From the NCBI GenBank assembly GCA_964526385.1, contig CAZGJD010000004.1:10010-74009 (forward strand): DNA of 64,000 nucleotides. The letters are read 5' to 3'. The translations under genes were made by a program, and so were the position numbers. The DNA comes from an uncultured Candidatus Poseidoniales archaeon (lineage in GTDB: Archaea; Thermoplasmatota; Poseidoniia; Poseidoniales; Poseidoniaceae). Shown here piece by piece: positions 15,727 through 34,386 of the stretch (within the stretch, counting starts at the first letter, position 1; every line of letters begins with the position of its first letter). The notes below the pieces were generated by a model, which saw only the letters and a list, made by a program, of their open reading frames with translations, was not told the DNA's origin and did no database searches.

Positions 15727-15804
15727 TGGTAGCGGGAGATGGATTTGAACCATCGATCTACGGGTTATGAGCCCGTCGGTCGAACCATGCTAACCTATCC
15801 CGCT
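15727..15804 (-). tRNA. tRNA-Met (CAT), archaeal initiator type, with genomically encoded CCA
   Basis: The reverse complement folds as a clean cloverleaf: acceptor AGCGGGA/TCCCGCT, D arm GGTT..GACC, anticodon arm ACGGG-CTCATAA-CCCGT, T arm GATGG-TTCAAAT-CCATC, discriminator A plus CCA. The A1:U72 pair and three G:C pairs closing the anticodon stem are initiator hallmarks. Confidence 0.85.
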
Positions 15805-22243: not shown

Positions 22244-22722
22244 ATCACAGTTTCGTGTGTGATTTTGCAATCCTTGCGAATGCTTTGTGAAACACTACAG
22301 TATTTTTGATGAGATTTCTCGACAACTCTCTCTACTAGTTTCTTTGGAACATCTCCTACTACGTGATATACCATGTGAATAGTAGTAAAATATCTTGGTG
22401 GCTCGTTGTTTCTAGTAGATGACAATTCAACCCAAACCTTTGAAAAATTTCTGTCTTTCAAACCAATGACTACGTCAACGATAGAACAGGCACCTATCGA
22501 TTGCAAAGCTATCTGCATAGGGCTAGGACCATTTTCCCAATCTATTTCGATAATTTGTTCGTTTGAATTCACTCCAATGAGATTTGTACCACCGGTCCAC
22601 TCAACTCGCCCTTCCATGTACATGCCAAAGTGGAGTGTGAAATGAAACCACCGTCGACCGCTTTGTTGATGAAGGGGGTATAAGTCCCGCAACATGAGCA
22701 ACATGTCAGGAACACCTATCAC
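22228..22722 (-). CDS. OsmC/Ohr-family peroxiredoxin-like protein
   Basis: It has the two conserved Cys contexts (SIGACSIVD and KYCSVSQS) and the usual size. The true start is probably an internal Met (e.g. 22704, 22695 or 22623), since 22722 would overlap icd divergently. Confidence 0.65.
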
Positions 22723-23929
22723 AATGGAAAATGGAGTGCTAAAAGTACCTAATGACCCAGTAGTTTACTACATCGAGGGTGATGGAATTGGTGTTGATAT
22801 TACCCCTGTTATGATTGATGTTGTAGATGCTGCAGTTAGCAAAGCATACAACGGTGAAAAGAAAATACACTGGACTGAAACCTTAGCAGGAGAAAAGGCA
22901 TTCCACCAAACTGGTGAATGGCTACCAAAAGAAACTCTTGACCTCATGCGAAGCGGTCTAGTTTCAATCAAAGGGCCGTTAACAACCCCTGTAGGAGGTG
23001 GGATTAGGTCACTTAATGTTGCTTTAAGGCAGGAATTGGATTTGTATGCCTGTGTAAGACCAGTAAGATGGTATGAAGGGACTCCATCACCAGTAAAATC
23101 TCCTCAAGATGTTGACATGATAATTTTCCGAGAAAACAGTGAAGATGTCTACGCAGGAATTGAATGGGAGGCTGGTTCTGATGGAGTTAAGAAAGTGATT
23201 GACTTCTTAGTTAATGAAATGGGTGTCTCTAAGATTAGATTCCCCGAAACCTCCGGGATCGGCATCAAACCAATTAGTAAAGAAGGTACCGCGAGGATTG
23301 TCCGAGCTGCAATTCAGTATGCGGTTGATAATGACAAAGATAGCGTAACATTAGTTCACAAAGGAAATATCATGAAATTTACAGAAGGTGGATTCAGAGA
23401 CTGGGGCTATCAAATTGCAAAGGAAGAATTTGGTGCTAAGGAATTAGATGGTGGCCCATGGTGTGTTTTGACAAATCCTCAAACTGGAAATACGATAACA
23501 ATCAAAGACGTCATCGCTGATGCTATGCTACAGCAAATAATTACCAGGCCTGCAGAGTACGGAGTTTTAGCCACCATGAACCTGAATGGCGACTATATTT
23601 CCGATGCACTCGCAGCACAAGTTGGTGGAATTGGTATTGCTCCTGGTGCTAATATTAACTATGATACTGGTATATCGATTTTTGAGGCGACACACGGAAC
23701 AGCACCAAAGTATGCTGGTCAAGACAAGGTGAATCCTGGTTCTCAAATTCTATCCGCTGAAATGATGCTAAGGCACATGGGATGGGCCGAGGCTGCAGAC
23801 CTGATAGTCAAGGGAATGGAATCTGCAATTTCCGCAAAAACTGTGACATATGATTTTGAAAGACTAATGGATGATGCTACTCTATTATCCTGCTCAGAAT
23901 TTGGGAATGCAATGATTTCACACATGTAA
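22694..23929 (+). CDS. icd: NADP-dependent isocitrate dehydrogenase
   Basis: [57 protein letters not shown]; full-length similarity pattern to bacterial Icd. Confidence 0.95.
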
Positions 23930-23939
23930 TAAAGCTAAA

Positions 23940-26900
23940 TCAATTATTGATATCACGGCTGTTAGCAATTACACCAAATCCAAACCTTTCCTCAACTGCA
24001 CGTGCAACCAGTGTAAAGTCTGAATCTCTTGTTGCGACCAAAATACTGCCAATCTCATCGAGAGGTTGATCCGCCATTGCAGCCGCTATACACATAATCG
24101 ATTGGTCTGGAGTTTCTGGATAAATATCCCTGTTTGCAATAACTGACCTCGCAGGCTCTCCATGCTGTCTCTTCATTGCTGTAATCTCGTCATAAACTTC
24201 AGAATGATCAAGTAAGAATTGCTTCAACTCTTCTCTGATTTCTTCATCATTAGCTTCATCTTCGATGTGAAGATTTAATGGTTTCCAAGTTGAGAAGTCT
24301 TTTACAACTTGGTTTGCCATAGATTCCAACTCATCCTTAGTGATAATCTCATCAAGTTTATTTTTGTCTACCAGCGTCTCAGAAAATCTTGATTTCATAT
24401 TTTGTACATCTTGAGCAAGTCCTACAAGTTCTTTGCTCACAACCTTCGGAATCCAGAGATGTACCCTCTTTTCATCAGCTCTATGTTTGAGAATTCGATG
24501 GAAGCGCCCTCTTCCGCCTACGTCAAGTGAAACCTCAGAGGAGATACCCAATAAATTTGAGACTCGATACTGTAATTCATCCATCAAGATATTTGTATCA
24601 ATAATTATCAATGGTGATAATTTCAAATGTTTCAGATATGTTCTTTGTTTGACAGGAAGATTATTTCTATGAGTAGCAAATAATCCTTGTTCGGCTTGTG
24701 CAAGTCTCTTCCTGTCCATAAGAGACAGTTTTGGAGAACTTTGGGCTCTCTCAAGTAACATCAACCCATCGAGCGGTCTTTCAGCCGATGCTTCGCTTGC
24801 AATGTTGTAAATTTCTTCAGTTGAAGGTTCATGAATCATTACATTAGCATATCTGTTTTCATACGAATATCTATTTACTCTTCTTCTATCTCTCTGAATT
24901 GAATTCAGTGCCGCTTTAACTCTGCCTGTGAATGGTTCTGCAGGCAGAGATCTGGACTGAGCATAATTCCTTAGTATATCCAATTCTTCTTCAGAAAATT
25001 TAGATTTTTCAACCTGATTAATCTTTCCAAATTGGTCTTCTTCTTCAACCAACACGGTTTTCCTAACAAATGATTTCAACATTTTAGTAGCATCGTCTGT
25101 GCTTTTTCCAGTTGTAGCAATCTTTGAAACTTTAAGATAGAGCTGGAATCTCTTAGTTAGAGCAGTCTTCAGAGCAGGTTCTTTTTCTAACAAATCGACT
25201 GCTTCATTCCACTGTTCCGAATGTGCATAATGAATCAAAGCTTTTCTGTAAAGCAATATCTTGTGCTCATAATCGAAGTCTTTGTGGTCACCTGCACGTT
25301 TGTAATCTCTTGCTGCATTCAATTCTTCTTTGTTTGATAGGTGTCTTGCAGCCCGTGCCAAAGTATGCCACGGAGATTGTGGGTCATTTTCTTGATACCA
25401 TTTTACTAAGTTTGGAACTCCAATATCATATTCCAGGACCAAATGTTTGACGGCTTGCATCATTGGTAATGCCGTCTCAGAGGAGGATAGTAAACCATCC
25501 AACAGTTTTACGACATTATCCTTTTTGTAACCAGTTTGTAATAACCACGATGCTCTATTTAGTCGGAGAGTATCAATAACGGCTCCAAATAATCGTGACT
25601 CTAAATTAGATAGTTTGCCTTCGTCAAGACTTGATGCGAGTATGTCTATGACTTTCGAGTCGGCTAATCCATCCCCTCCATCTTTCAGTGCTTGACGACA
25701 ATTGTTGAACGCTTTGATCCCGTTTTTATCCAGAGTTGAGATTAACCAATTATCGTCGGATTGTGCAGCACCATCCAATAGTAGTATCAGTCCTCTACTA
25801 GCGTCTGAAATTGAATCGGGTGCTTCAGCATCTTCGACGGTGGAAAGAGCGTCCCTTCTTGCTTTTCTAACCTCTTGGAAATCTCCACCTTTGAAATTCG
25901 CAGGAAGTAAATGAGCAACCAATAATGTCGAGTATGGGTGGTCAGCACATCTTTCTTCATTTCCAAGTAGGATTTCAGAAAGTCTCTGCAAATCTAAATT
26001 TTCAGTAAACACATCTATTAGTTGATCTGCTGAAACTTGACCACCTGACTCATGAATTCTCTTTGCAACTACATACTTGAGGCCGTGGGAAAAATCATCA
26101 TCTTCAATTATTTCTAATAGAGAATCTAGGGATAGTGAATCTAATTGCCCCTCCAACCATTTACCTGCTCCATCACCTAGTTGTTTAACCATGGAGATAA
26201 GTGCAGATATGTCAGCATCCGACTCTATTGATAGCGTGTCGAGTAAGGAAAGTGCCATTTCGGATTCTCCTTCTTTGACCAGTGCAGATAATTTCCACCA
26301 AGTCAATTTCTCTTTATTTTTGGAATCTGTGATGTAGGTAAGACCTGCATCCAATTCCTTACTGGACAATTTCTCCGCATCAGCCGGCAATAGGTTCCAT
26401 GCAGCCGTTTTTCTTGCTAGCGTTAATTCATCGTCGCCTGAGAGTTTCCTAGATTTATTCCAACTTTTTGACTCCCCGCTACGTAATTTGAGCAAGTCGT
26501 TCAATGCTTCAGATAATTTTGAATTTGATTTTTTTAGTTCCTTCAGGTTTTCAGAAGCATCATTCCCCATATGCATATTCAACAATGCACTAATTACGCT
26601 TAATTCGCCATCAAGGGATTCAAGGTCTTCAAAATCTCTAAGTCCTTTCTTACTGCTAAGTTGGTTCTTAGCTCTCTGCACTGCTATTTTCAAAGGTGCG
26701 TTGTTAATTCCTTTTTCAAATGTTTCCAGCGTCTTTGCAAGACTTGCAGAATTCATTGGGTCGATGAAGGCCACTTTAGAATCCACTTCATCAGAAATTG
26801 CTTCCTCATTTGCTAATTTTGGAAATGACATAAACTGAGCCAAAATTGGAGTACATTCCGCCATCTTATGCCAGACCTCATGAACACCTGAACTCGCACA

Positions 26901-27311
26901 ACTTTCTCTTAGTTGCTCTATCAATTGGTCGTTACCTTCGTCCCAATCATCTGAAAATAGTGATTTCCTTATTTGCAGAACTGCTAATCTGAAAGCTTCA
27001 GTTTCGGCGCCTGCGATAATTACTTCCTCCGTTTCAGGAAGCCACTGCAGGGGGCCAGTATTTTGAGAAACACCTCTTCTACTTCTTGAAGTGCTCCTTG
27101 CTCTCATCATCTGTGGTTGATTGGTATTATCATCTTCGTTTGGAATGTGTAACTCATAAAGACCAGACAACAGAAGGGATTTCCACGGTTTTTCAAGCAT
27201 TTTCCATTCAGGTAATTTTAGTACCTTCCTTTGCCGTGCTTGAGGAGACAGATTATCTATCATAGCGGACTTGAGGCAAACGAGTAGATTCGATTCCTGT
27301 ATCACGCTCAC
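23940..27311 (-). CDS. 1123-aa helical-repeat (TPR/HEAT-like) protein with C-terminal PIN-domain nuclease
   Basis: The C-terminal roughly 230 aa carry the PIN acidic quartet in order: LIIIDTNIL, IPKVVSKELVGL, ETPDQSIM, LVATRDSDF. The N-terminal roughly 850 aa are helical with TPR-like stretches (KILLYRKALIHYAHSEQWNEAVDLLEK). Confidence 0.75.
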   Translation of the reverse strand: MSVIQESNLLVCLKSAMIDNLSPQARQRKVLKLPEWKMLEKPWKSLLLSGLYELHIPNEDDNTNQPQMMRARSTSRSRRGVSQNTGPLQWLPETEEVIIAGAETEAFRLAVLQIRKSLFSDDWDEGNDQLIEQLRESCASSGVHEVWHKMAECTPILAQFMSFPKLANEEAISDEVDSKVAFIDPMNSASLAKTLETFEKGINNAPLKIAVQRAKNQLSSKKGLRDFEDLESLDGELSVISALLNMHMGNDASENLKELKKSNSKLSEALNDLLKLRSGESKSWNKSRKLSGDDELTLARKTAAWNLLPADAEKLSSKELDAGLTYITDSKNKEKLTWWKLSALVKEGESEMALSLLDTLSIESDADISALISMVKQLGDGAGKWLEGQLDSLSLDSLLEIIEDDDFSHGLKYVVAKRIHESGGQVSADQLIDVFTENLDLQRLSEILLGNEERCADHPYSTLLVAHLLPANFKGGDFQEVRKARRDALSTVEDAEAPDSISDASRGLILLLDGAAQSDDNWLISTLDKNGIKAFNNCRQALKDGGDGLADSKVIDILASSLDEGKLSNLESRLFGAVIDTLRLNRASWLLQTGYKKDNVVKLLDGLLSSSETALPMMQAVKHLVLEYDIGVPNLVKWYQENDPQSPWHTLARAARHLSNKEELNAARDYKRAGDHKDFDYEHKILLYRKALIHYAHSEQWNEAVDLLEKEPALKTALTKRFQLYLKVSKIATTGKSTDDATKMLKSFVRKTVLVEEEDQFGKINQVEKSKFSEEELDILRNYAQSRSLPAEPFTGRVKAALNSIQRDRRRVNRYSYENRYANVMIHEPSTEEIYNIASEASAERPLDGLMLLERAQSSPKLSLMDRKRLAQAEQGLFATHRNNLPVKQRTYLKHLKLSPLIIIDTNILMDELQYRVSNLLGISSEVSLDVGGRGRFHRILKHRADEKRVHLWIPKVVSKELVGLAQDVQNMKSRFSETLVDKNKLDEIITKDELESMANQVVKDFSTWKPLNLHIEDEANDEEIREELKQFLLDHSEVYDEITAMKRQHGEPARSVIANRDIYPETPDQSIMCIAAAMADQPLDEIGSILVATRDSDFTLVARAVEERFGFGVIANSRDINN

Positions 27312-27407
27312 CCCTCCCTAGCCATTGCGAAAAGTTGACCTCTTTAGAGCCACCGCTGGTTAATACACTGCAAACAACCATGAGTAGTAACTCAACAGGC
27401 GTTATTC

Positions 27408-27830
27408 ATGGGGGTAGCAAACACCATCATTTTGCTACTACATCCGATAACTGCAAGTTTGATTATCGCCTACATCTGGTGGCAGTATGGTTGGAAGGAA
27501 AAGTCAAGGACTTTGAAAGGAAAAGAAAGGATGGAAAATCTCGAGAGACATGAAAAAACTGGCGAGAGAATCCTAATATTAGCTTCAATATCAGTTCTAA
27601 TCGCTTTTTTAGCGAGATATTATACAGGACTTGGATTAATTCCTCAGAGTCTCCACGGATTTACTGGACCCATTGGGATAATATTGCTGTGGGTAATGAC
27701 AAGATGGGGCAAGAAATCTCGCAAGGATAAAATTGCAAAAACAAAACATGGTAGGGCTGCAGACCTTCTAGTTATCTTGATGTTTTTACATTCATTCCTT
27801 GGCTTCCTCTACATTTTCGAAGTTGTTTGA
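27408..27830 (+). CDS. small 4-TM membrane protein
   Basis: 140 aa with four hydrophobic segments and conserved-looking His residues. The 3' end overlaps the convergent MMPL gene by 39 nt. Confidence 0.5.
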   Translation: MGVANTIILLLHPITASLIIAYIWWQYGWKEKSRTLKGKERMENLERHEKTGERILILASISVLIAFLARYYTGLGLIPQSLHGFTGPIGIILLWVMTRWGKKSRKDKIAKTKHGRAADLLVILMFLHSFLGFLYIFEVV

Positions 27831-30122
27831 TTTTGGTGACAACCACTTTGGTGACCACCAATTCCATTTACCCATCAACCTCATTGTTGAGGGAACAACC
27901 AATGCCCTGACAATTGTTGCATCCAGAAGGATGGCAAGAGCAAGTCCTAGACCGATCTGTTTGAGAATAACTACCGAAGATAAGCCAAATGCCAAGAATA
28001 CCACGACCATAATAGCCGCAGCACCAGTAATCAATCGTCCAGTTTTCTGAAGCCCATTGGCTACAGCTTGTGTGTTATCACCTGTTACTTCCCACTCTTC
28101 ATGAATTCTAGACAACATTAGAACTTCATAGTCCATGGATAAACCAAAAACGATACAGAACATTATGACTGGATTTGTAGCTTCGATTGGCTGTGGTGTG
28201 AAATTAAGAAGTTCGGCGCCGTTACCCCATTGGAAAACAAAGACTAACATTCCAAAGGAAGCAGAAATGGATAGAATGTTCATCACAATCGCCTTTATTG
28301 GAATAATTACACTCCTTACTTGAATGTAAATCAGAATAATGGTTGAAGTGAAAATAAACGCAATAGCGATTGGAAGGTTTTCAACAATTGCATCGAGGAC
28401 GTCGACACTGTATGCTGCGAAACCTGCTACCAGCAGTTTCCCGTCACTACCGACTAGAAGATCATCCATCAAAGACGACCGTTCATCCCGTACATCATTA
28501 ACGAAATTTCTGCTGTCCTCGCCAGTGATTGGACCGTTCAACGAAAACACAACATAAGTTACGTTATCGGATAAGAATTGGCTTCTGATGTATTCCCTAG
28601 TTGCTACATCTTGCGCAGACAAACTTGAGTTTGGAGCTTGCCAGTACTCTACTGCCATCGATTCATTTACGCCTGGATAAGGTATTGCGTAACCAAAGGT
28701 TTCTATCACCCTTTCATCACCTAACTGAGCAGTCATCCATTTGTGCATTCCTCGTATATTTTGCTCAGACAGTGGGTCCTCTCCATCAAAATCTACAACT
28801 ATTGTAGCGGAGTTTACTGCGCCTTCTGGCCACTTCTCATCCATGTGCTCAAAACCAACTCTAGTTTCATCATCAGGTGGCAATGCATCTCTTGAAGCAA
28901 TAGAAAAATCTGCTTGTAGGAAAGGTAGGCCAGCGCCTAATAATATGATGAGAGTTGGGATTAAGACAGCCCAAGGTCTATCCATAACTGTGGTCGCAAT
29001 CTTCGACCAAACTCCATCTCCGTCATCATTATCAGTGCTGAATGCGAATGGAATTTTCAACTTAAACAATCTATCACCAAGCATTGCTAAAACGGCTGGC
29101 AACACCACTATGGAGAATATCATAGCAACCGATACAGCAAGAGTTCCTCCAATTCCTAAACTCGGTAAGCCCGTATTTTCAAAGAAGAGCATCCCCATCA
29201 AACCAATTGCAACAGTCACACCACTGAAGAATACTGCCTTACCTGCAGTACCGACGGTCATTGCCGTAGATGTTCGAAGATCTCTCCCGCGATTGAGTTC
29301 TTCTCTGAAACGATTGACCATGAAAAGCGAATAATCAACAGATACACCAATGCCAATCAGTGTGATGATATTCAATGCATATTGAGTTACATCTGTTGTA
29401 TTTGAAAGCCAAATTGTAATTCCCATTGCCGATAACACTGTCAAAATTGCAACACCCAAAGGTAACAATGCTGCGATTAGTGTTCCAAATACAATACCCA
29501 ATATTATCAAAGTTAAGGGGCCTGATACAAGTTCTGCTTTGATAAGGTCGTCCTGAATTCTTGTATCGAATGTAACATCAATTGCGATATTCCCTGTTCT
29601 CCACGAATCAAAATCTGAATCGATCTCAATGGATTCGTAATTATCTGCATAGAGTGCTTTCGCATCCTTTCTATCCAGATTAATGATTACTCGATTCTTT
29701 GCCCAAAAACCATCATCTTCTTGCTTGACAAACTCTTCACGTTCATCACCAGTTTGGTTCCAAGAATATTCAACTTCAACATCATCTAATTTAGCGAATG
29801 GAGCGAGTGCAGCAATAACCTCGTCCCTCCATTCTTGTGATGAATCATTCAAAGAATCATGGTGAACGAGAAATGTGAATCCTTGAACGTCTTCTTCCTC
29901 GCCAAAGAATGCATCTTCCAGTAAATCTCCCGCTTCAATTGACTCAAGGTCGCCTTCACCCCAGGATTCAGCCCAATTTGGACCCATCAAAACCAGAGAA
30001 GACATTAGAATGCAAGACAGCATTCCTATTACTAGCACTGATTTGCGGTAATCGTAGGTAAATTCTCCTAATTTGAAGAAAATGCGATCTTTGAGCATGG
30101 CTGGGTCTGTCACACTTTCCAT
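27792..30122 (-). CDS. MMPL/RND-superfamily transporter
   Basis: Two 6-TM bundles, each preceded by a large soluble loop; SVDYSLFMVNRFREE and GLSMDYEVLMLSRIHEE are typical MMPL motifs. I prefer ATG 30122 (MESVTDPAMLKD...) over the ORF limit at 30224, which would overlap the upstream gene. Confidence 0.85.
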   Translation of the reverse strand: MESVTDPAMLKDRIFFKLGEFTYDYRKSVLVIGMLSCILMSSLVLMGPNWAESWGEGDLESIEAGDLLEDAFFGEEEDVQGFTFLVHHDSLNDSSQEWRDEVIAALAPFAKLDDVEVEYSWNQTGDEREEFVKQEDDGFWAKNRVIINLDRKDAKALYADNYESIEIDSDFDSWRTGNIAIDVTFDTRIQDDLIKAELVSGPLTLIILGIVFGTLIAALLPLGVAILTVLSAMGITIWLSNTTDVTQYALNIITLIGIGVSVDYSLFMVNRFREELNRGRDLRTSTAMTVGTAGKAVFFSGVTVAIGLMGMLFFENTGLPSLGIGGTLAVSVAMIFSIVVLPAVLAMLGDRLFKLKIPFAFSTDNDDGDGVWSKIATTVMDRPWAVLIPTLIILLGAGLPFLQADFSIASRDALPPDDETRVGFEHMDEKWPEGAVNSATIVVDFDGEDPLSEQNIRGMHKWMTAQLGDERVIETFGYAIPYPGVNESMAVEYWQAPNSSLSAQDVATREYIRSQFLSDNVTYVVFSLNGPITGEDSRNFVNDVRDERSSLMDDLLVGSDGKLLVAGFAAYSVDVLDAIVENLPIAIAFIFTSTIILIYIQVRSVIIPIKAIVMNILSISASFGMLVFVFQWGNGAELLNFTPQPIEATNPVIMFCIVFGLSMDYEVLMLSRIHEEWEVTGDNTQAVANGLQKTGRLITGAAAIMVVVFLAFGLSSVVILKQIGLGLALAILLDATIVRALVVPSTMRLMGKWNWWSPKWLSPKSNNFENVEEAKE

Positions 30123-30195
30123 AAATAACCGCCTGAAAATTAGTATATGAAATAATGTATCAAGTCGGTCAATATTTATTACAAAAAACCTCGAC

Positions 30196-31212
30196 TCAGC
30201 GAAGCATTTTGCTATCTCTATCACTCCAAAGTTCTAGCCATTTTTGCAAGTTGTTTTCTTTATCTGTTTCGATCAACTCACGACTAGATCCATCTGCAGG
30301 TTGTATGCGACATCCGCAGGCGTTTGCATGGCCTCCGCCAGTCTCATCAAGAAGTGTAGCCAACATAGACAAATCGTAGGGATTATCTTCTCCTCTGAAT
30401 GAGTTCGCATAGAATGATGCACCCAGTGCTGGGTAATTTGGATCTGAAATACTACCGTCCATGTATCCATGGATTACGCAACATGCGATTGCCTCAGATC
30501 CTGCGATTGCCGTAACAAGGTATCCGTTACTTCTAATTCCAGTTTCACTCAAATCACATATTGCTAACCTGTTAACAATTCTGGTATTTTCTTTTACGGC
30601 CTTAATCTGAATTTCGCGCTCCCGCAATAAATCGTCGAGAAGTGATTTATGGCTTTCCAAAATCTCTGTTAACGAAATTCCTGAGGCAAACTGATTCATC
30701 ACAACCTCCATGTGCCCGGGGTTCGAAAGAGATAATGAGCGAGATAAGCGAATAACAGGACCGTCCTGCATAAAATCTTCAAGAGAAATTCCGCCAGAAT
30801 CCAACTGGTCAACGATTGGCATTACTTCTTCCAAGTGAGAAAGGTCTAGTTCATTTCTCATAAGGTCATATGCAGCTCTTGCAGCAGATGGCGTGTCTTT
30901 CCAGTGACAAATTCCTCCTCTCTTAACGAATGCAAGTTCCTCTTGTTTTGATGGTTTATTAGTGAGGTGATGGTCTAAATAAAGTCCACAATCCGGATGA
31001 AAGGGTAAATCACAAATTGCAGTATTTTCATCAATCAAATGGTCCACTATTCCTGCTCGAATAAGCGCTGGGTGTGCGAAATGAACCTGCAAACTAGGTT
31101 TGCTTGACTTGAGAACCGCTGCGGCCATCAAACCATCCAAGTCAGAATCCGCGACAACTCTTACGATATTATCGAGGACGGACATATTCTCGTCCAAAAA
31201 TACCAGTTTCAT
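30196..31212 (-). CDS. DHH/DHHA1-family phosphoesterase (NrnA/RecJ-like)
   Basis: Motifs ADSDLDG, LYLDHH, and GGGHANACG (DHHA1). The ORF is open to 31254, so the start is uncertain (31254, 31212 or 31185). Confidence 0.75.
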   Translation of the reverse strand: MKLVFLDENMSVLDNIVRVVADSDLDGLMAAAVLKSSKPSLQVHFAHPALIRAGIVDHLIDENTAICDLPFHPDCGLYLDHHLTNKPSKQEELAFVKRGGICHWKDTPSAARAAYDLMRNELDLSHLEEVMPIVDQLDSGGISLEDFMQDGPVIRLSRSLSLSNPGHMEVVMNQFASGISLTEILESHKSLLDDLLREREIQIKAVKENTRIVNRLAICDLSETGIRSNGYLVTAIAGSEAIACCVIHGYMDGSISDPNYPALGASFYANSFRGEDNPYDLSMLATLLDETGGGHANACGCRIQPADGSSRELIETDKENNLQKWLELWSDRDSKMLR

Positions 31213-31266
31213 GAATATGTTGTTAAAATCGGAGAGCATAAGAATAAGTGACAATCCGATTTGATT

Positions 31267-31680
31267 ATGGAAACCTCATGCGGTGTTGTATTGGTAAACT
31301 TTGGTTCCATCCTACTTTTACAATACCCTCAAGGGCACTGGGATTTCCCCAAAGGTCATGTTGAGTCTTCAGATGAATCAAAAACTGCCACTGCCGCAAG
31401 AGAATTAAGGGAAGAAACAGGCATATCAGAAATTACTTTCATTCCAGAATTTGAATATAGAACCTCATATTCCTTTAGACACAAAGGAAAGATTGTGAAC
31501 AAACAGGTGTTTTGGTTTATTGCTGAGACCGAAACATTGGCTGTAAATATTAGTCATGAACACCGAGAACACCTTTGGTTAGAATGGGAAAGCGCAATGT
31601 CCCAACTGACCCATGAAGAGAGTAAAGGTGTTCTTGCCGCAGTTATGCAACACATGTCAGAAATTGGAAAATTGGATTAA
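31267..31680 (+). CDS. NUDIX hydrolase (Ap4A-hydrolase-like)
   Basis: Nudix box GHWDFPKGHVESSDESKTATAARELREETGI. The ORF track starts at TTG 31261. Confidence 0.8.
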   Translation: METSCGVVLVNFGSILLLQYPQGHWDFPKGHVESSDESKTATAARELREETGISEITFIPEFEYRTSYSFRHKGKIVNKQVFWFIAETETLAVNISHEHREHLWLEWESAMSQLTHEESKGVLAAVMQHMSEIGKLD

Positions 31681-33972: not shown

Positions 33973-34386
33973 TTAGTCCTTATGGTATGAACTGCCTTTC
34001 AAAATTTCAGATGCTCGGTATAATTGTTCAACTAAGATTACCGATGCTAACTCATGTGGAAATGTTAATTTTGATAGAGAAATTTTCTGATTTGGAAGTC
34101 TCTTTGGAAAACCGCTTGCAGGCCCAACTGCGAGATTAACGTCATCTGATGATAATTGCCAAGCCTTAAACTTTGTAGCAAAATTTCGAGAAGTCAAAAA
34201 GTCGCCACCCTCATCCAACAATATTGTGTTTTCACTTAGTTTTTTTAGATATTCAGTTGGTGTCAATTTCGAATTATGATACTCAATTTTTAATTTATTT
34301 CCAAGCCTTTTGGAATAGTCATCAATCAATTCTGACATTCTCTTGTCTGAAGGTTTGCCATGAAGATGAACGATTACGCGCCCCAT
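33973..34386 (-). CDS. rlmH: SPOUT methyltransferase RlmH (23S rRNA pseudouridine N3-methyltransferase type)
   Basis: The C-terminal LSLSKLTFPHELASVILVEQLYRASEILKGSSYHK closely follows the RlmH signature (..LS.LT.PH...R..L.EQ.YRA..I..G..YHK). Confidence 0.8.
   Translation of the reverse strand: MGRVIVHLHGKPSDKRMSELIDDYSKRLGNKLKIEYHNSKLTPTEYLKKLSENTILLDEGGDFLTSRNFATKFKAWQLSSDDVNLAVGPASGFPKRLPNQKISLSKLTFPHELASVILVEQLYRASEILKGSSYHKD

Follow-up and report, generated by a model that had tools for sequence, protein, structure and literature searches.

The 64,000-nucleotide stretch of contig CAZGJD010000004.1 analysed here (the window), which comes from an uncultured Candidatus Poseidoniales archaeon, raises the question of what role is played in the cell by a protein of 1123 amino acids (aa) in which a long helical region is followed by a C-terminal nuclease-like domain. 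The gene coding for it, referred to below as the solenoid-PIN gene, extends over 23940..27311 on the minus strand (1123 aa plus stop codon, with a GTG start at 27309-27311) and is found in one copy in its own genome. A recorded protein of 1121 aa is 99% identical, and the recorded orthologues number over 140. Our analysis leads us to lean, by a modest measure, towards a constitutive housekeeping endonuclease, metal-dependent and guided by its scaffold, which would act in RNA processing, turnover or surveillance and is specific to Poseidoniales; the protein would be cytoplasmic. The domain reading of an initial annotation of this DNA, a helical scaffold with a C-terminal PIN nuclease bearing a long insertion, holds in the light of motifs, profile comparisons and fold models.

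The C-terminal 226 residues (898-1123) constitute an alpha/beta PIN-like domain. A model of this domain alone (predicted local distance difference test, pLDDT, 86.7; predicted template modelling score, pTM, 0.86) shows the element order b1-a-a-b2-a-(five-helix insert)-b3-a-b4-a-a-b5-a, which is canonical for PIN. The first half of the domain (residues 898-967; 24411..24620, minus strand) comprises strand 1, at whose end the invariant D905-T906-N907 stands, then strand 2 (LWIP) and the E961-bearing helix, while the second half (residues 1051-1123; 23943..24161, minus strand) comprises a strand 3 hairpin, the YPE..D1069 segment, strand 4 ending with ATR-D1096-S-D1098-F, and strand 5. Between both halves, after strand 2, lies an acidic insertion of five helices (residues 968-1050; 24162..24410, minus strand; isoelectric point, pI, 4.6), and two lead-in helices with an invariant R890 (residues 861-897; 24621..24731, minus strand) join the preceding solenoid to the nuclease domain. 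The four acidic motifs that had originally been quoted in support of a PIN domain are all present in the open reading frame (ORF) and in the right order: IIIDTN with D905 (24597-24599), IPKVVSKEL with E961 (24429-24431), TPDQSI with D1069 (24105-24107) and ATRDSDF with D1096 (24024-24026) and D1098 (24018-24020), all on the minus strand. The helical insertion of about 100 aa that had been proposed between the second and third acidic residues is likewise real, being residues 968-1050 with their five helices (model pLDDT 86.7). D905, E961, D1069 and D1096 fall at the canonical PIN sites, namely the end of strand 1, the helix after strand 2, the position after strand 3 and the position after strand 4, and D1098 comes in addition to them.

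The conservation of these residues was checked in a corrected alignment of 34 true orthologues from 20 genera, with identities down to 28%. Only 32 of the 1123 positions are invariant in this set, among them D905-T906-N907, D1069, D1096, D1098 and F1099, so the PIN assignment withstood this check. The probability that at least four of the five named acidic positions would be invariant by chance is 2.7e-6, and the acidic pattern is therefore not a chance one. E961 deviates in two rows, one of them an alignment slip (DGE) and the other a real E-to-Q change. The latter belongs to L038 (G037:C3, genus g19), which reads RSQLL for RNELR; no other orthologue has a substitution of the catalytic Glu. 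The acidic set D905, E961, D1069, D1096 and D1098 is thus maintained across the order. The second half of the PIN domain contains 11 invariant residues per 100, the highest density in the protein; the insertion 968-1050 has no invariant residue, yet it is under purifying selection. These data bear on whether the protein could be a structural scaffold with a non-catalytic PIN-like binding module, a pseudo-nuclease comparable to SMG5, Utp23 or DIS3L. Many scaffold-linked PIN domains of eukaryotes are inactive (PMC5499597), and one metagenome-assembled genome (MAG), G037, does have E961Q; however, the acidic residues are invariant or nearly so order-wide, the catalytic half is the richest in invariant residues and four other genomes in the genus of G037 retain the Glu, which makes a pseudo-nuclease very improbable.

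The next question is to which PIN family the domain belongs. In a Pfam scan of 23 diverse orthologous domains all the recurring families were from the PIN clan, with PIN_12 in 12 of the 23, PIN in three and PIN_4 in two. PIN_12 scores ranged from 16.4 to 19.3 bits against a cut-off of 32, so the domain is a remote relative of this family and not a member by the Pfam definition; deleting the insertion in silico brought little gain, with one construct barely over the PF01850 cut-off (23.8 versus 23.6 bits). The motif layout of PIN_8/PIN_12 proteins from other Thermoplasmatota (DTN, LWMPyqVgaEF, then a long insert of helices, GD..IW and FVTnD) is mirrored by IIDTN, LWIPKVVSKEL, insert, PDQSIM and VATRDSDF in the solenoid-PIN protein. 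Comparison by hhalign with an alignment of 28 PIN_8/PIN_12 sequences built for this purpose gave 80.7% probability (E 1.3e-5), and a relaxed run aligned 182 collinear columns in which D1069 pairs with the invariant Asp of the family, ATRD pairs with VTxD and the insert occupies the same position. The first halves alone reached 92.4% (E 5e-7), with 0.1% for a reversed control. A family alignment was required for this comparison, since hhalign against single PIN_12 sequences had no power. According to these results, the domain had not been given its best name when it was called SMG6/PIN_4-type, because PIN_12 outnumbers PIN_4 in the Pfam scan and LWxPxxVxxE[LF] is the PIN_8/PIN_12 signature. Across the 201 genomes sampled from the phylum, PIN_4 turned up in only one protein.

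PIN_12 corresponds to DUF4935, which has been assigned to the VapC-like group with no function given, and for which a helical insert after strand 2 has been described (Matelska et al. 2017, PMC5499597). The insert is therefore a family trait and not a peculiarity of the solenoid-PIN protein. No solved structure is available for PIN_8/PIN_12/DUF4935 (PMC5499597), and PDB sequence profile searches with our alignments returned nothing relevant. In fold searches, the only PIN-bearing PDB match was Rrp44, at rank 36 with the highest TMq of that list (0.33), and the two best BFVD matches were a Medusavirus 'PIN domain-containing protein' (probability 0.99) and, with a TMq of 0.44 over 248 columns, a 'PIN like domain' protein from a siphovirus. 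Altogether, the C-terminal domain is PIN-like, of the VapC-like structural class and nearest to the PIN_8/PIN_12 (DUF4935) group. This assignment also bears on a DNA-directed role as a structure-specific, FEN-like nuclease in replication, repair or recombination, in which the solenoid would be a platform for DNA or the replisome. The PIN-like superfamily includes the FEN/XRN 5' nucleases, several of which appear low in the BFVD list, and the Arg-rich loop of the N-terminal region described below might bind DNA just as well as RNA. Nevertheless, in its topology and in the position of its Glu helix after strand 2 the domain follows the VapC-like class and not FEN (class definitions in PMC5499597), the domain model lacks both a helical arch after strand 1 and an H2TH/H3TH module, and profile and fold comparisons alike match PIN_8/PIN_12 best and not FEN, so that a DNA-directed function looks quite doubtful.

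The region preceding the nuclease domain was analysed in a full-length AlphaFold model made from an 18-sequence alignment (mean pLDDT 79.8). It begins with a short basic helical head (residues 1-53; 27153..27311, minus strand; pI 9.4) with the conserved motifs 'QExnLxxCL' and 'LEKPWKSLLL', followed by a disordered Arg-rich loop (residues 54-86, MRARSTSRSRRG; 27054..27152, minus strand; pI 11.4, pLDDT below 50). R79 within this loop is invariant order-wide, and the loop is a candidate nucleic-acid-binding arm. Residues 87-860 (24732..27053, minus strand) form an all-alpha solenoid scaffold in the model, interrupted by its only hairpin, a protruding beta-hairpin at residues 750-772 (24996..25064, minus strand; strands E750-758 and E764-772). 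Conservation of the solenoid peaks at residues 500-860, for instance in the motifs NAARDY, RFQLYL and EPFxGRVKAA. The earlier description of this region as helical and free of NTPase motifs was borne out, since the model is helical and no Walker A motif is present; Pfam and NCBIfam scans gave no NTPase family match, and neither a transmembrane segment nor a Zn motif or Cys cluster was found in the protein. An HExxH motif at residue 144 was discarded as not conserved, because other orthologues read GVHPVW; H144 itself is invariant.

Fold and sequence searches of the N-terminal region, which had been recommended as a check, yielded generic solenoids and no sequence relative. Foldseek of the full-length model against PDB returned only TPR/HEAT solenoids such as CTR9, IFT-A, CAND1, SKI3 and importins, with probabilities of up to 1.0 and TM-scores of just 0.10-0.17. 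The whole protein had nothing over threshold in Pfam and NCBIfam, a profile search of the solenoid against PDB sequences found no relative, and self-comparison of the solenoid profile detected no internal sequence repeat. Weak matches to ARM_TT21 (5 of 18) and TPR_7 (3 of 18) at residues ~650-750 are restricted to a minority of orthologues. The 'TPR-like units' that had been noted in this region are thus correct as regards an alpha-solenoid fold and incorrect as regards tandem sequence repeats. This helical region of ~860 residues, without known sequence relatives, would qualify for definition as a family of its own.

We then consider whether the gene belongs to the core or to the accessory genome of the order. 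Of 151 Poseidoniales genomes, 138 have it, among them 53 of the 58 high-quality ones; it occurs in 20 of 22 genera, as a single copy, and on the phyletic check that had been suggested it is therefore a core gene. Extra short matches in G130 and G093 lie at contig ends and were rejected as stand-alone PIN paralogues, as were second matches in G042 and G038, each of which complements a truncated main match. Both negative genera retain the synteny on the flanks, DUF4079 and DHH genes included, and have no ORF of ~1100 aa, which indicates clean losses and led us to reject a hidden divergent orthologue in them. Outside the order, a family-profile search of ~165 Thermoplasmatota genomes, two of them from the same class, gave no match. 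When 1.84 billion representative proteins were searched with a HMMER profile, only 232 matched, and the 150 listed all look like full-length orthologues or fragments. The 59 related contig loci come from Poseidoniales or unclassified archaeal MAGs, with the exception of one 'Yoonia' contig. This contig, L087 (CAXRJJ010000099.1, 'MAG: Yoonia sp.', 27 kb), carries a full-length orthologue with 38% identity and almost certainly represents archaeal DNA that was mis-binned into an alphaproteobacterial MAG. Another particular case is G102:C42:24664-28012, where the orthologue is split over two adjacent open frames, one of 493 aa covering residues 4-450 and one of 697 aa covering residues 459-1121; the gene is either a pseudogene with a frameshift or stop, or was misassembled. 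The family is restricted to the order, core within it and previously unnamed. Regarding the possibility, raised at the outset, of a universal single-copy orthologue with ribosome-biogenesis relatives, a near-universal single-copy distribution is indeed seen within the order, and known relatives in ribosome biogenesis are missing.

Inheritance and selection point in the same direction. A maximum-likelihood tree placed seven of the eight sampled Poseidoniaceae rows in one clade (99/100), the eighth row being an unrelated ORF, and genera group by family; this clustering by taxonomy is consistent with vertical inheritance. Pairwise dN/dS values were 0.03-0.08 in all of the solenoid, the PIN core and the insert, with an omega range of 0.01-0.08 for the insert, while icd and the DUF4079 gene had values of 0.019 and 0.026, respectively, in the same genome pair. 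The solenoid-PIN gene is therefore under strong purifying selection, like icd. Long-range divergence is fast, with 28-30% identity between families versus 75-85% for icd.

These features are relevant to the second of the two functions initially put forward, a single-gene sensor-effector. In its immune form, the solenoid would sense a viral protein or nucleic acid (e.g. from a magrovirus) and release the PIN domain, which would then degrade host or viral RNA, following an NLR/Avs-like logic that does without an NTPase and has become part of the order's core genome. Such logic suits a repeat scaffold joined to a nuclease, the fast divergence between families and the dispensability of the gene in two genera are in keeping with it, and the nearest PIN relatives (PIN_8/PIN_12) are patchy, monocistronic and bacterial (PMC5499597). 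In contrast, the gene is near-universal, single-copy and syntenic, its tree follows taxonomy, and its dN/dS is low in the solenoid as well as in the nuclease domain, so that nothing hints at an arms race. Furthermore, neither the solenoid-PIN protein nor the PIN_8/12 proteins matched any PADLOC-DB v2 model, the neighbours are metabolic housekeeping genes and not a defence island, and the central P-loop of STAND/NLR-type proteins, and with it an NTPase switch, was not found. An immune sensor-effector is consequently unlikely. The sensor-effector proposal is thus disfavoured, and preference goes to the other initial proposal, a large RNA-processing scaffold, more precisely a housekeeping scaffold plus nuclease.

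How would such a housekeeping scaffold-plus-nuclease work? The acidic cluster is predicted to bind Mg2+/Mn2+ and to cleave phosphodiester bonds, and RNA would be the likeliest substrate because other VapC-like PIN domains act on RNA. The solenoid, together with the Arg-rich loop 54-86, could serve as a recognition platform for the substrate or for a partner, and would deliver a specific RNA or ribonucleoprotein (RNP) to the active site, while the acidic helical insert, which would lie over the active site, may gate access to it. A more specific proposal is that the protein is Poseidoniales' own RNA-surveillance endonuclease, with the solenoid and the Arg-rich arm docking on the ribosome or an RNP and a gated DUF4935-type PIN cutting the bound RNA, as a functional analogue of SMG6/Swt1; we regard this as a speculation that is rather unlikely to be right.

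Several observations weigh against the scaffold-guided housekeeping RNase, or against parts of it. Regarding the nuclease domain, all native Pfam PIN matches are below gathering thresholds (best E 0.0011-0.002), the hhalign comparison of second halves alone is non-significant (E 0.038) with the correct register, and Foldseek of the domain against PDB gave no significant match (best E 0.35). In the full-length model, a pTM of 0.45 leaves the inter-domain arrangement uncertain. Regarding function, the choice of RNA over DNA has structural class as its sole basis, and the closest relatives, PIN_8/PIN_12, are without an assigned function (PMC5499597), so that no function can be transferred from them. 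Lastly, regarding a housekeeping role, the clean losses make the gene dispensable in two genera and the fast divergence is atypical for a central housekeeping enzyme; both weigh against a central essential role.

The same losses bear on a more defined housekeeping role, in which the protein would replace RNase P in the manner of PRORP, or act as a giant Nob1 in 16S 3'-end maturation. The architecture is analogous to that of PRORP (PPR repeats plus an NYN domain), and eukaryotic Nob1 also has a split PIN. However, RNase P RNA (RF00373) was found in 21 of 21 Poseidoniales genomes, including that of the window, and was over the cut-off in 20, and a small PIN_6 Nob1-type protein (~160-200 aa) was found in 16 of the 21, including all eight high-quality ones. 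We rejected both replacements on these grounds. In addition, the two genera without the solenoid-PIN gene keep RNase P RNA and PIN_6 (genome G002), and a replacement role is hardly credible.

The genomic surroundings of the gene were also analysed. On one side, icd (22694-23929, plus strand) ends 10 bp from the stop of the solenoid-PIN gene, and the pair is convergent since the two genes face each other stop to stop. On the other side, separated by a divergent intergenic region of 96 bp (27312-27407), starts the gene of a DUF4079-like membrane protein of 140 aa with four transmembrane segments (27408-27830, plus strand), a conserved divergent neighbour. These orientations make the solenoid-PIN gene monocistronic, as the initial annotation had stated; the convergent orientation that it had given to the small membrane-protein gene was wrong, since this gene is divergent, with 96 bp between the starts, and icd is the convergent one. 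The head-to-head adjacency with the DUF4079 gene is preserved in 17 of the 19 genera having the solenoid-PIN gene, and the spacing between the 3' end of the latter and icd can be as short as 10 bp or exceed 10 kb. The DUF4079-like gene survives in genomes that lost the solenoid-PIN gene, and it therefore has no dependence on it. It is missing from G037, the sole MAG with E961Q.

The gene forms one edge of a block whose synteny extends throughout the order, which agrees with the neighbourhood conservation that was to be checked, with housekeeping genes as neighbours. Members of the block are an RlmH-type SPOUT methyltransferase, two small uncharacterised genes, a PduO-type adenosyltransferase, NUDIX, DHH/DHHA1, MMPL in some genera, DUF4079 and the solenoid-PIN gene, after which icd comes next in Poseidoniaceae. 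The bacterial-type RlmH is encoded at 33973-34386 on the minus strand, and a DHH/DHHA1 phosphoesterase (352 aa) and a NUDIX protein (139 aa), conserved order-wide, form a divergent pair at 30196-31680. The nearest solved relative of the former is the pGpG phosphodiesterase PggH (E 1.3e-7), and those of the latter are Ap4A hydrolases (E 1.5e-13). The MMPL transporter gene (27792-30224, minus strand) stands between the DUF4079 and DHH genes in some genera only; it is present in L024, L026, L028 and L029, and elsewhere in the locus in L041, and most other loci are without it, so its spot is an indel site within an otherwise rigid block. In two genera the orthologue is adjoined by unrelated giant ORFs, L027 (G126:C34) and L030 (G004:C4), of 1252 and 1923 aa, respectively. 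No mobile or defence-related genes were found near the solenoid-PIN gene, and the only structured RNA was one tRNA 8 kb off (15730-15804, minus strand), the single Rfam match in the window.

Marine Group II (MGII) archaea, the group to which the order Poseidoniales corresponds, rank with the most abundant archaea of the plankton and are uncultured, so their lineage-defining genes are nearly all unannotated. The solenoid-PIN gene is one such gene, with a housekeeping level of constraint, presence in 20 of the 22 sampled genera and detection in no other lineage, and its annotation can be upgraded from 'hypothetical protein' to 'solenoid-PIN nuclease, Poseidoniales-specific'. A scaffold with a PIN nuclease is a known kind of protein; the novelty lies in the family itself, in an architecture that is new to the DUF4935 branch and in the rank of a lineage-defining MGII core gene. 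The PIN_8/PIN_12 branch is thereby extended to a new architecture, in which the PIN domain is C-terminal and attached to a solenoid, as well as to a gene of the archaeal core, which offers a more tractable route to the function of the branch than its patchy bacterial members. If the RNA-surveillance proposal were true, it would give the PIN_8/PIN_12 branch its first function, and an order-specific RNA-decay pathway would exist in an archaeal group that is among the most abundant in the ocean.

Compared with known systems, the solenoid-PIN protein shares with PIN_8 (PF18476) and PIN_12 (DUF4935, PF16289) the collinear arrangement of DTN, LWxPxxVxxE[LF], a long helical insert after strand 2, D and [VA]TxD; these proteins are monocistronic as well, and a phage 'PIN like domain' protein was the fold match with the best TM-score. 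They differ from it in being ~320-500 aa long, mostly bacterial and patchy, and in having an N-terminal PIN domain followed by an alpha/beta region, whereas in the solenoid-PIN protein, the product of a core archaeal gene, the PIN domain is C-terminal after an 860-aa solenoid, with nothing after it. SMG6/EST1, the PIN_4 endonuclease of nonsense-mediated decay (NMD), likewise combines helical-repeat partner recognition with an active C-terminal PIN, an activity that is only predicted in our case, and weak PIN_4 matches were obtained for the solenoid-PIN protein (E 0.002-0.003). Nevertheless, the helical parts have no sequence or fold relationship, PIN_4 was recovered in only the two domains of 23 mentioned above and the insert is of the DUF4935 type. 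Archaea are not known to have the NMD machinery. PRORP is also a single polypeptide with helical repeats and a PIN-like metallonuclease; it is of the NYN class and not VapC-like, the solenoid-PIN protein has no PPR signal or Zn-binding linker, and RNase P RNA is present in all tested genomes. As for Dis3/Rrp44 and its N-terminal PIN, and for SKI3-type TPR scaffolds, no entry of the PDB fold list other than Rrp44 contains a PIN domain, and SKI3 belongs to the best matches of the solenoid; these matches are statistically weak and generic, and the solenoid-PIN protein does not have an RNB domain. By analogy, the working principle of the solenoid-PIN protein would resemble that of the eukaryotic scaffold-plus-PIN endonucleases (SMG6, Swt1 and the Dis3 N-terminus) more closely than that of toxin or defence PIN domains.

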